Part shown: in pieces, positions 26,147 to 35,091 of the stretch
How positions within the stretch are numbered: position 1 is the stretch's first letter
How the letters are laid out: every line of letters begins with the position of its first letter
Assembly (NCBI GenBank): GCA_963783375.1
Contig: CAWANH010000029.1
Location: 1,056,001 to 1,120,000, forward strand
DNA: 64,000 nucleotides
Direction: 5' to 3'
Origin: Candidatus Eiseniibacteriota bacterium
GTDB lineage: Bacteria > Eisenbacteria > RBG-16-71-46 > JABDJR01
Notes under the pieces: generated by a model
The model's input: only the letters and a program-made list of their open reading frames with translations
Database searches by the model: none
Told to the model about the DNA's origin: nothing
Translations under genes and position numbers: made by a program

Positions 26147-27960
26147 CTAGGGAAGGATCTCGCCGTCGAACATGTCGAGCGCCTTCTGGAGCATCGGCTC
26201 GTCCTTGAAGATCTGACCCATGGTGCGGGTGTCCTCGGCCGCGCGCTTGGCCCGGGGCTTCTTCCCCTCCGCCGCGGGAGGGGCGGGCTCGGCCCCCGCC
26301 GCTTCGGGGGAGGCGCCCTTGGCCGGGGCACGCCGGGCGGCTTCGACCTCCGACGGGGCGACTTCGGGAGCGGCGTTCCCGGCCGGAGCGGCGGCGCGCG
26401 GCGGGCCGGGGGCACCCCGTTTCGTCCCTGGTGCGGCGGATCCCTCCAGCCGCACCGCCGGCGCGGCGCAGCCCAGATCGGCCAGGATCTCCGCCAACAG
26501 CTCCCGGGTCGTCTCCTCGGCCAGGGTGTCGGCCAGCATGCTCCCGCCCCCGGTGGCCCGGAGGATCAGGGCCCCGTCCTCGGCGGTTCCCACCGCCTCG
26601 GCGTTGTGGCAGGTGGCCCAGATGCGCTTGTTCCGCTCCTTGAGTGCCTCCATCGCGCCGGCCCAGATCCCGACGGCATCGCCTGCAGCCTTCGCGGGGG
26701 CGGCGCGCCGACTCTCACCCCCGGACCGCGAGGGGGGGGTGCCCCGGCCCTTGGCCGGGGCGCGGGGCGCCGAGGCCTCGGAGGGGCGATCGGGAGCGGC
26801 CGGAGGGGTTTTCCCCCCCAGGCGCGCCTCCAGGTCCAGGAGCCGCGCGGCGAGATCGGCCAGGGGCACCCGCGACGCGGCCTGGGCCATCTCCGCCAGG
26901 GCGAGTTCCATGGTGAGGCGCGGGTTGGGGCTCCGCCGGAGCGCCACCGTGGTGTCGGCGGCGCGCTCCACCAGATCGGTCAGGGCTTCCCGGCCGAAGG
27001 CCGCGGCCTGGGCGGTGAGACGCGGGACCTCGGTCTCCGAAGCCTCGAGTATGGAGGCCAGGGCCGGGTCGATCCGGAGCATGAGGAGGTCGCGCAGATG
27101 GCCGGCCAGCCCTTCGGCCAGCTCCCCCAGATCCGCCCCGCTGGTGTAGATGGTGTCCAGGAGGCCGAGCGCGCCCGCGGCATCGCTCGCGGCCAGGCGG
27201 TCGGCCAGGGTGAGGTAGAAGTCGGCGCCCACCAGCCCCAGGATCCGCTCCACGCTTTCCCGTTCGATCGCCCCGTCGGCGGCGGAGATGATCTGATCCA
27301 TGAGGGAGAGCGCGTCCCGCACCCCCCCGCCGCCCGCCGGGCCACCAGGGACAGGGCGTCGGGGGATGCCTCGATCCCCTCCTGCTTCATGAGCGCGGCC
27401 AGGTGGCCGGCGATCTCCCGCGAGGGGATGCGGGCGAAGTCGAAGCGCTGGCAACGGGAGAGGATGGTGGCCGGAAGCTTGAAGGGTTCGGTGGTGGCCA
27501 GGACGAAGACCACGCTGGCCGGCGGCTCTTCCAGGGTCTTGAGCAGGGCGTTGAACGCCTCGTGGGTGAGCATGTGGACTTCGTCGATGATGTAGACCTT
27601 CGACCGTCCGCCCGAGGGCGCGTAGCGGGCATTCTCGCGCAGCTCGCGCACCTCGTTGATGCCGCGGTTCGAGGCCCCGTCGATCTCCAGCACGTCCATG
27701 CTCCGGCCGCCGGTGATCTCCCGGCAGGCGTCGCATTCATTGCAGGGAACCGCGGCCGGGCCCTTCTCGCAGTTCAGGGCCTTGGCCAGGATGCGGGCGG
27801 CGGTGGTCTTTCCCACTCCGCGAGGCCCGCAGAAGAGATAGGCGTGGGCCACCCGCCCCGCGGCGATGGCGTTTCCCAGGGTGCGGGTCACGTGCTCCTG
27901 GCCCACCACGTCCTCGAACACCTGGGGGCGGTACTTTCGCGCCAGGACGAGATAGGACAT
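26147..27960 (-). CDS. dnaX: DNA polymerase III subunit gamma/tau, split by a frameshift at the G7 run 27322..27328
   Basis: [26 protein letters not shown] and SRC lie in one frame; [10 protein letters not shown] and domain III lie in another. Adding one G gives a continuous ORF of about 604 aa. Confidence 0.93.
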
Positions 27961-28018
27961 GGGTTCCCTCCGCGTTCGGGGGCGGCGGACGGGTCGGGCC
28001 GCCGCTCCGGAAGAAAAA

Positions 28019-28290
28019 GGGTCGTGCACCTGCTTTTCGACCAACACCGGGCGCCGACTACGAACGGCCAGCTCCGGCCAGGGACTCCGACGGCACACCG
28101 AGGGAATTGCTTACCGCTGCTACCTTCCGGTCCTGACGGGGTTCACAAGCCTCGATTGCGCCGGACCTGGCCCTCAACACCGCCATCTTCCGTAGTCCGC
28201 ACGCCAGATGCAGGCCTCGAGCAGGAATTCAGCCCCGCTATAGCGGATTGCGGGTACAGGGCACCGCTAACTCCCCGCCTAGCACGACCC
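28019..28290 (-). ncRNA. ffs: Signal recognition particle RNA, large (Alu-domain) type
   Basis: 5' GGTCGTGCTAGGCGGGGAGTTAGCGGTGCCCTGTACCCGCAATCCGC Alu domain; helix 8 TCAGGACCGGAAGGTAGCAGC; 3' GTGCACGACC pairs with the 5' end and is followed by a T-run; lies upstream of dnaX. Confidence 0.95.
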
Positions 28291-30321: not shown

Positions 30322-30504
30322 GGGCGACGCCCGAGGGTGCGAGGGCCGGTTGCCTGGTGCGTTCCGCCGCGGTTCGCCCGATCACGACGGTGGCGGGCGG
30401 TCGCTCACCGACTGGCTCGGGTTCATCGTGCGGGTTCGCGTTTTTGCACAACCAATGCGTTTGTATTCTGGTGGACCCGGGTACACATTGTTCACAATCA
30501 GGCG

Positions 30505-30627
30505 CCGGCGTGCTTCCCCGGGGAAGCAATGTTCGTGATAACGCCCCGGCGTGCTTCCCCGGGGAAGCAATGTTCGCGATAACGCCCCGGCATGCTTCCC
30601 CGGGGGAACAATGTTCACAATAAAGCT
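30505..30627. repeat. Three 41-bp tandem units with an 18-bp palindrome
   Basis: Units start at 30505, 30546 and 30587; consensus CCGGCGTGCTTCCCCGGGGAAGCAATGTTCGYGATAACGCC. The third copy is diverged. Confidence 0.9.
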
Positions 30628-30692: not shown

Positions 30693-31225
30693 TGGCGGAG
30701 AGGGAGGGAGAGTCGTGGCGCCCGCTACGCTCCGCCACGACATCCCCGGTCGCCGTGCTTCCTCAGGTTCCAGCGGATGACTACCTGAGTTGTCTTCATG
30801 TGGCGGAGAGGGAGGGAGAGTCGTGGCGCCCGCTACGCTCCGCCACGACATCCCCCGACACCGTGCGAACCGGAGGAGCAGCCGACAATCAACGTTGTCA
30901 TCACATGGCGGAGAGGGAGGGAGAGTCGTGGCGCCCGCTACGGCCACGACATCCCCGGTCGCCGTGCTTCCTCAGGTTCCAGCGGATGACTACCTGAGTT
31001 GTCTTCATGTGGCGGAGAGGGAGGGAGAGTCGTGGCGCCCGCTACGCTCCGCCACGACATCCCCGGTCGCCGTGCTTCCTCAGGTTCCAGCGGATGACTA
31101 CCTGAGTTGTCTTCATGTGGCGGAGAGGGAGGGAGAGTCGTGGCGCCCGCTACGCTCCGCCACGACATCCCCGGTCGCCGTGCTTCCTCAGGTTCCAGCG
31201 GATGACTACCTGAGTTGTCTTCATG
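30693..31225 (-). repeat. tRNA-Ser(CGA)-anchored tandem array, 5 units of 104-108 bp
   Basis: Units start at 30693, 30801, 30906, 31010 and 31118. Each begins on the + strand with TGGCGGAGAGGGAGGGA, the reverse complement of the last 17 nt of the tRNA. Confidence 0.97.
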
Positions 31226-31313
31226 TGGCGGAGAGGGAGGGATTCGAACCCTCGGAACCCGGAGGTTCAACGGTTTTCGAGACCGCCCGATTCAACCACT
31301 CTCGCACCTCTCC
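31226..31313 (-). tRNA. tRNA-Ser (CGA)
   Basis: GGAGAGGTGCGAGAGTGGTTGAATCGGGCGGTCT-CGA-AAACCGT, long variable arm, GGTTCGAATCCC...GCCA. Confidence 0.97.
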
Positions 31314-34597: not shown

Positions 34598-34666
34598 TCC
34601 CGGGGGAATCCCCGTCAAGTGCCGGTCTCCGGGGCCCGGAGGTTAACGCGCCACGTTGCTAACCCA

Positions 34667-35091
<425 letters not shown>

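Follow-up and report, generated by a model that had tools for sequence, protein, structure and literature searches.

tRNA-linked repeats (TLRs) have been known in Escherichia coli since 1978 (Egan and Landy 1978 and Rudd 1999, as cited in PMC8144298). According to the accessible text of that paper, they comprise 22 units at ten loci, with one to five units per locus, lie right behind a tRNA or rRNA gene in its own orientation, are defined by 18-19 bp of identity with the 3' end of the gene upstream, and have no known function. In strain K-12 they include the 178-bp repeats of tyrT/tyrV (rttR), the 181-bp repeats of serX, the units of the lys operon, and rrA, rrB and rrF (PMC8144298). RrA, RrB and RrF are transcribed and processed, bind Hfq and CsrA and have modest phenotypes, and for RrB both co-transcription and processing to discrete RNAs have been shown (PMC8144298); the mode of action of rttR is termed unknown in the available part of a preprint (bioRxiv 10.1101/2024.07.17.603846). 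Genomic islands that target tRNA and tmRNA genes cross over at subsites in the T-loop/junction region and have tmRNA as their most enriched target (PMC4383910).

Here we analyse a 64,000-nucleotide stretch of a Candidatus Eiseniibacteriota genome (the window; its positions are used below unless a contig is named). A preliminary description of this stretch had reported a tandem array of about 108-bp units behind the tRNA-Ser(CGA) gene, each ending in the tRNA's own 17 nt including CCA, and both points hold. The gene lies at 31226..31313 on the minus strand (ARAGORN), as does the array at 30693-31225, which contains five units of 104-108 nt and is called by TRF with period 108, 5.2 copies and a score of 913. 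Unit 1 begins at the first base 3' of CCA and there are no gaps. The tail copied exactly in each unit runs from T60 to A76 of the tRNA (31226-31242, minus strand). Unit 1 (31118..31225, 108 nt) is made up of a 54-nt 5' segment and a hairpin module that opens with GGGGATG at 31172, and its tail copy is at 31118-31134. Unit 2 (31010..31117, 108 nt) is identical to unit 1, as is unit 5 (30693..30800, 108 nt), which carries the last full tail (30693-30709); unit 3 (30906..31009, 104 nt) is unit 1 minus 4 nt in the upper hairpin, and unit 4 (30801..30905, 105 nt) is a mosaic in which a different 51-nt 5' segment precedes a last 55 nt identical to those of unit 1. The 5' segment of about 50 nt had been called variable; it is in fact identical in units 1, 2, 3 and 5, with unit 4 alone differing, and the consensus proposed for the unit fits four of the five units but not unit 3, where the 4 nt of hairpin are missing. 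Genes flanking the arrays encode a glycosyltransferase, an FlgD-domain protein and a tRNA deaminase-like protein.

These arrays are almost certainly TLRs. As in E. coli, they adjoin the 3' side of a stable-RNA gene in the same orientation, and their units start right after CCA, end in an exact 17-19-nt copy of the 3' end of their own gene and number 1-6 per locus (1-5 in E. coli). In the serX, tyr and lys regions of K-12, we find that the units share 18-19 nt with the host tRNA and have a host-matched GGAT arm and GAGCGAAGCG-type hairpins; the pairing of the tail start with an upstream GGAT arm, and the order GGAT, GAGCGAAGCG, ATCC plus tail, are common to both groups. A covariance model built from Eisenbacteria units alone detects all seven full tyr/serX TLRs in these K-12 regions, if weakly, at 16.7-19.8 bits (tRNA genes there reach 3.5-13.3 bits), and the lys units at only 3.5 bits. 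The earlier pointer to the E. coli tyrT repeats was therefore apt, given the shared hallmarks and this weak cross-detection. Differences are that the Eisenbacteria units are shorter, with one unbranched hairpin instead of a multi-branched core, an arm of 4-6 bp instead of about 10 bp and a 5' segment without a terminator, and that the family is confined to tRNA-Ser, with a separate unit type at tmRNA. The Rfam family RtT (RF00391) has no match at E ≤ 10 between 30400 and 35200 of the window, where its gathering threshold of 45 bits is not reached, and none in five genomes at E ≤ 1, with a positive E. coli control. By their hallmarks the arrays thus belong to the TLR class but not to this Rfam family; they may be homologous to the E. 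coli TLRs or convergent with them. They are a new lineage-specific family of a known class and not a new kind of system, so that the label "undescribed system" was too strong, the class being in print (PMC8144298). The literature searched, which included few subscription journals, holds no paper on this Eisenbacteria family or on TLR origin.

Other known systems are less close. As with tRNA/tmRNA islands, whose att sites lie in the T-loop or junction (PMC4383910), the tRNA gene is followed by a detached piece of its 3' end that is about as long, the hot-spot genes are the same and, at two loci, island-like inserts interleave with units; but the units measure about 90 bp instead of at least 2 kb, have no integrase gene inside or nearby and leave no room for an attP of about 250 bp, and no integrase gene lies between the tRNA and the displaced fragment. 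REP/BIME elements and their RAYT partners also involve short palindromic non-coding units in tandem clusters, and CGTC-type REPs are reported to lack a dedicated transposase (PMC3733652), as the Eisenbacteria units seem to. The latter, however, are not dispersed but found only at tRNA-Ser, form no head-to-head dimers and occur in a group in which 10 of 10 genomes are without a Y1 transposase. An array of repeats and inserts beside a fixed anchor is likewise seen in CRISPR loci and casposons, and casposons duplicate tRNA 3' ends. In contrast to these, the genome of the window has no Cas1, the inserts are homologous to each other and not foreign, and terminal inverted repeats are absent; CRISPR-like variable spacers were rejected on the identity of the 5' segment in four of the five CGA units and the lack of a phage match. 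A tRNA-primed or CCA-initiated retroelement would be accompanied by a reverse transcriptase gene, and there is none in the genome of the window (G000) or in its relatives G001-G003.

Arrays in the genome and its relatives

All four genuine tRNA-Ser genes of G000 and its tmRNA gene are followed by arrays. The preliminary description recorded the CGA array but missed a second one within the window, behind tRNA-Ser(GGA) (35001..35091, minus strand), which belongs to the same family and contains three units of 110, 112 and 112 nt (34667..35000, minus strand; TRF repeat span 34665-35017), the first of them with a 2-nt deletion in its tail. A probable remnant of an older unit follows (34600..34666, minus strand), judged by eye and unscored from its likeness to the 5' segment of a tRNA-Ser unit in G002. 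On the same contig, two units lie behind tRNA-Ser(GCT) (C29:1125051-1125268) and three plus a partial unit behind tRNA-Ser(TGA) (C29:1126164-1126493), the latter ending in the TGA gene's own, different tail. The tmRNA array (C3:189174-189335, minus strand) has two full 81-nt units and a partial one, unrelated in sequence to the Ser units. Within 600 nt, the longest 3'-anchored repeat is 16-18 nt at the four tRNA-Ser genes and tmRNA but 3-7 nt at the other 44 of 49 CCA-ending tRNA/tmRNA calls, which excludes chance. Elsewhere in the genome there is no Ser unit, a result on which motif scan, covariance-model search and tail search agree. In the tmRNA units, which measure 45-124 nt in relatives, an arm is complementary to tail positions 61-71; by eye, their GNA loops are on the antisense strand, opposite to those of the Ser units.

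A double-tail pattern matched 10 of 206 genomes of the phylum; six of these belong to the family of the window, and the other four matches are tandem tRNA-Ser genes, not units. Within the family, full units are present in G000-G004 and G006 at 1-6 per locus; G005 has a degenerate unit (by eye), and G007, which is 75% complete, has no tRNA-Ser match. The GGA gene of G001 and the CGA and GCT genes of G004 carry no unit, and five genomes outside the family have tRNA-Ser genes without units. Arrays at tmRNA occur in G001, G003 and G004, with a partial tmRNA unit in G006. The covariance model, built from 28 of the 36 distinct units, was run on ten genomes of the order, and every match is at a tRNA-Ser gene; outside the family its matches, in 3 of 151 genomes of the class, are tRNA genes or coding DNA. 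Four metagenome contigs yielded more units, every one behind tRNA-Ser, and phage and viral contig collections gave no unit match. The unit family is lineage-specific, belonging to one Ca. Eisenbacteria family and always located behind tRNA-Ser. A record titled Deltaproteobacteria (L163/L249) has the order lipoprotein, deaminase, tRNA-Ser(GGA) together with a family unit and may be mislabelled. Horizontal transfer to "Deltaproteobacteria" (L163, 89.8 bits) was rejected, since this record shares the gene order of the window and is therefore most likely a relative.

Units of the same layout occur further afield. A pattern scan of GTDB, with a forced GGGA position and a 17-nt minimum, returned at least 120 stretches, 80 of which were examined and 64 re-matched. 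Among the matches listed, 33 of 64 have a T-loop before the second tail and are mostly tandem tRNA genes; the remaining 31 are non-tRNA units, at least seven of them of this family and at least one from a probable relative. At least 23 of the matches listed are non-family units, with tails of 17-22 nt, and come from Actinobacteria, Patescibacteria, Verrucomicrobia, Gammaproteobacteria, Bacillota and one unclassified record. Among these matches, 7 of 24 non-family units have an arm that runs on into an inverted copy of the T-loop, with 6 or 7 of 7 nt matching, and 12 of 23 contain GCGN(1-2)AGC. Two tRNA-Ser genes of Saccharibacteria (G210) have different T-loop variants, and the direct and inverted copies in each unit match the local variant.

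Hairpin module and host-exact tails

The units follow one plan, consisting of a 5' segment, GGGA, a core of 26-35 nt and the tail. In the hairpin module, for which unit 1 (31118..31172, minus strand) may serve as the example, the TCCC that opens the tail is the pairing partner of GGGA, covarying inner helices follow, and the apex is a C-GNA-G mini-hairpin. The GGGA/TCCC pairing (positions 60-63) is present in 28 of 28 alignment rows. Double-sided changes occur at 8 of 8 inner pairs and 90% of cells pair, compared with 38-52% in slid controls, and none of 500 shuffles covaries as strongly, although the genomes are related, so that neither the identity nor the covariation counts are independent, and the latter are inflated by the relatedness of the sequences. 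Twelve cells hold G-U wobbles, and these point to the transcribed strand as the one that folds, whether as RNA or as single-stranded DNA. The apical loop is usually C-GNA-G or C-GNNA-G, where each of the four bases is seen at N, and several loops are GNRA-compatible tetraloops. Of 24 distinct cores, 13 contain GCGN(1-2)AGC on the sense strand and 0 on the antisense strand (shuffled mean 1.6), and GNA accounts for about 6% of comparable triloops in the genome. The GCGNAGC motif forms an unusually stable mini-hairpin as DNA that is less stable as RNA, and is known from single-strand origins and N4 promoters (available text of PMC13037366); judged from their sequence, the apical loops look tuned for DNA. 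Replication direction was dismissed as what sets the strand of the mini-hairpin, because by GC skew tRNA-Ser and tmRNA are both on the leading strand and their GNA loops are on opposite strands.

The acceptor part of the tail has no specific pairing: the 14 nt before GGGA pair with their own tail at a mean of -7.3 kcal/mol, and the mean is -7.4 in shuffled controls and -7.5 with other tails (34 units scored, four of them mis-anchored; G004 TGA not anchored). A tRNA mimic (minihelix) with a rebuilt acceptor stem was rejected, since tail pairing is no better than with shuffles or foreign tails. Folding z-scores are modest, with a mean of -1.2. The 5' segment measures 51-59 nt and the whole unit 102-114 nt in 35 of 36 distinct units, while identity of the 5' segment between genomes is 53% (49% when shuffled). 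No terminator-like site is present on the transcribed strand between tRNA and array or in the 5' segment. Origin of the module from a decayed tRNA-Ala(CGC) is not favoured: in G006 the hairpin start agrees with the 5' end of that tRNA in as many as 11 of 12 nt, but the count is as high as 10 for other tRNAs, and pairing with the tail dictates half of the match.

An exact host-tRNA tail ends 46 of 47 units, across four tail types, and the lone exception is the 2-nt deletion mentioned above. Tail lengths are 16-19 nt, and in all Ser and tmRNA units the identity sets in between positions 58 and 61. No unit of the 47 has a foreign tail, the expected intermediate of exchange. The bodies, on the other hand, group by genome. 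Leaving out two units, mean core identity is 76% for units of the same genome behind another tRNA (87 pairs) but 61% for those of another genome behind the same tRNA (107 pairs), and for TGA units the same comparison gives 71% vs 60%. On a tree of 41 tail-less bodies, from which the 75-nt G004 unit was left out and whose model is violated by recombination among units, the genome labels require 9 changes against a minimum of 6, and those of the tRNA 19 against a minimum of 3; all eight bodies of G006 group together (98/92) and span three tail types, and the topology test rejects a TGA clade (p-AU 0.0001). Host-exact tails on bodies that group by genome mean that bodies move between tRNA-Ser genes and take on the tail of the gene they reach. 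Mixing is not complete: G000 and G002 have TGA units that are sisters, so that exchange across tail types is rare.

Junctions of mosaic units fall just after the tail or within the GGGGAY block, and many arrays finish in a partial unit. Longer inserts interrupt two arrays. At tRNA-Ser(TGA) of G006, a 622-bp insert (G006:C14:2946441-2947062) with near-identical units on both sides is bounded by a 54-bp duplication of the tRNA gene that starts from the anticodon loop. It has a single ORF, lipoprotein-like by eye, and no integrase inside. The tmRNA array of G001 contains a 3.2-kb insert (G001:C8:116881-120092) with an 18-nt duplication. This insert encodes one 928-aa protein, kinase/TPR-like by eye, and at its right end 22 nt match the end of a unit and 18 nt match the tmRNA, as if a unit had been the target.

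Explanations for growth and spread

The reading that we prefer needs only host machinery, and we see about an even chance that its whole mechanism is right: recombination or slippage from tail to tail, gene conversion, a hairpin acting at the DNA level, and a largely selfish or neutral element. An array would grow, shrink and reshuffle through recombination or replication slippage between the direct 17-base copies, and it is this direct repeat that would turn a trailer of about 54 nt and a hairpin module of about 55 nt into an expandable unit. The tRNA's own tail, fixed by selection, would serve as the master copy and overwrite the tails of incoming units. Gene conversion may carry bodies from one tRNA-Ser gene to another, with the GGGGAY block and the tail ends that these genes share as anchors, and such anchoring would limit their spread to genes with near-identical tails. 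The hairpin would be kept mainly at the DNA level, its mini-hairpin-capped stem stabilising a looped-out strand and favouring re-copying, in which case the element would be largely selfish or neutral. It is probable that transcription of the tRNA extends into the units and that trimming then yields CCA-ended RNAs as a by-product, as reported for RrB. The inverted copy of the host T-arm in relatives from other phyla suggests that the first module may have arisen as an inverted-plus-direct copy of a tRNA 3' end. Several observations sit uneasily with this preferred reading. A neutral model does not explain a 5' segment of fixed length (51-59 nt) at 53% identity; conversion across different tails would need very short anchors of about 4-8 nt; the foreign-tail intermediate is absent among 47 units; and tyrosine recombinases are present in 10 of 10 genomes, so that a recombinase acting in trans may be involved. 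TLRs have been unexplained since 1978, and the Eisenbacteria family adds facts that can be tested on those of E. coli K-12: bodies move from one tRNA gene to another while the tail is always that of the gene at hand, searches for a dedicated enzyme among the usual classes found none, the apical loops seem adapted to DNA, and several phyla have single units of this layout behind tRNA-Ser.

The enzyme searches bear on any element with a mover of its own. The preliminary description had noted no integrase, transposase, cas or reverse transcriptase gene in the window, and for the families searched this holds: there is no match to tyrosine integrase (PF00589), serine recombinase (PF00239), Cas1, reverse transcriptase or Y1 transposase. 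Beyond the window, the RAYT/Y1 transposase (PF01797) is found in 0 of 10 genomes. Reverse transcriptase (PF00078) is present in 2 of 10 genomes and absent from G000-G003, which hold the longest arrays, and Cas1 (PF01867) is absent from G000 and G001 and present in G003, G004 and G006 (3 of 5 genomes). Small GIY-YIG proteins are missing from the six genomes with full units, where only frames of at least 246 aa were found, and the two small GIY-YIG genes, in G005 and G008, are not near tRNAs. Serine recombinases occur in four of five genomes, none at arrays. None of these families tracks the arrays, and RAYT, reverse transcriptase, Cas1, small GIY-YIG and serine recombinase were accordingly rejected as partners. 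G000 has five tyrosine recombinases, none in the window or at tRNA-Ser arrays, and two of the five are probably XerC/D. Two G000 tyrosine recombinase matches (C5:4964-5398 and C28:1350637-1351071) have the same score and the same 330-aa frame, and possibly represent a duplicated or integron-type integrase. In G004, reverse transcriptase and Cas1 share one 720-aa frame (G004:C1:145824-147593), likely an RT-Cas1 fusion. The earlier proposal of a non-autonomous element with a dedicated enzyme, to be checked by a co-occurring integrase, HUH nuclease or reverse transcriptase, thus finds no support, also because an element with its own core would not show the host tail at every locus. Tyrosine integrases acting in trans may have a role.

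Such a role is developed in the suggestion, in our view improbable, that the units are gene-less micro-cassettes: in a folded single strand, the GGGA arm and the tail would together recreate a double-stranded recombinase site, and the unit would be inserted by a tyrosine integrase. This putative integrase would target the T-arm/acceptor junction, be borrowed from passing islands or from the host, and perform an attC-like single-strand exchange. Integron attC cassettes move by single-strand exchange. The start of tail identity at 58-61 coincides with the region of the T-loop/junction crossover subsites of islands, whose most enriched target is tmRNA (PMC4383910), island-like inserts interleave with units at the G001 tmRNA and the G006 tRNA-Ser(TGA), and both the DNA-type mini-hairpins and the ruler-like 5' length fit. 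However, no integrase gene lies beside the tRNA-Ser arrays, units are absent from phage and viral collections, both interleaved inserts may equally stem from unequal exchange between direct repeats, and a cassette would bring its own tail, yet bodies cross tail types. Extended to all TLRs, as pan-bacterial gene-less single-stranded-DNA micro-cassettes whose hairpin rebuilds the T-arm site and which tyrosine recombinases insert in trans behind matching tails, the suggestion is similarly doubtful; if it is true, no site-specific mobile element would be smaller, and the hot spots at tRNA-Ser and tmRNA would gain decoy sites for integration.

That the units are functional small-RNA cassettes, cut from the tRNA precursor at each CCA with copy number as dose (for example as a protein sponge), appears equally unlikely. 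The conserved structure with its double-sided changes at all eight inner pairs, matched by none of the 500 shuffles, the wobble pairs on the transcribed strand, the conserved length and the lack of a terminator-like site between tRNA and array all agree with an RNA, as does the precedent of the processed, Hfq- and CsrA-binding RrA, RrB and RrF of E. coli (PMC8144298). Against it speak the acceptor stem, which is not rebuilt (-7.3 kcal/mol vs -7.4 and -7.5), the modest mean z-score of -1.2 and the genes of relatives without a unit (G001 GGA, G004 CGA and GCT). Function would moreover not require a host-specific tail, and in the available text of PMC8144298 the scores for CsrA binding are under 0.01 for the remaining 19 TLRs of E. 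coli.

It is highly improbable that the tail is a target-site duplication, or a copied primer-binding site, left by a reverse transcriptase or Cas1-like integrase that inserts bodies of about 90 bp. This would directly explain host-exact tails on mobile bodies, and the retroviral primer-binding site is 18 nt long. Reverse transcriptase is nevertheless missing from G000-G003 and Cas1 from G000 and G001, units have no terminal inverted repeats, and the 5' segments are homologous between loci without a match outside the arrays in the genome or in phages, and are therefore not acquired spacers.

An assembly artefact or one-off local duplication can be set aside almost entirely: among the contigs of four public DNA runs none spans the CGA array, but full units are present in six independent assemblies, four of them with 3-20 contigs, and in metagenome contigs, and units within one array differ. 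A junction between two units (30958-31095, 138 nt) is also covered by a public contig that is identical to the window, although its run may be the source sample. The one-off slippage duplication considered previously is refuted, since homologues exist, species differ in copy number and bodies move between tRNA genes. Nine public runs came up for this DNA, all of DNA and none of RNA. In the possible-source run X1, a piece of the GGA unit has about twice the flanking depth, and run X2 contains a variant unit near 30841-30898, perhaps from another organism.

Two further features of the window were recorded. After the CGA array, at 30489-30623, there is a 41-bp repeat (x3.3) with CCCGGG-centred palindromes. 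Similar palindromes, often clustered, occur throughout the genome (100 matches to a loose pattern, some by chance) and also follow arrays in G001-G003; because the genome has no RAYT, this is a REP-like family without a known mover. A dnaX-like gene (26147-28098, minus strand) is seemingly split over two frames (ORFs 26980-28098 and 26147-27736), which appears to be a frameshift, either programmed or an assembly error.
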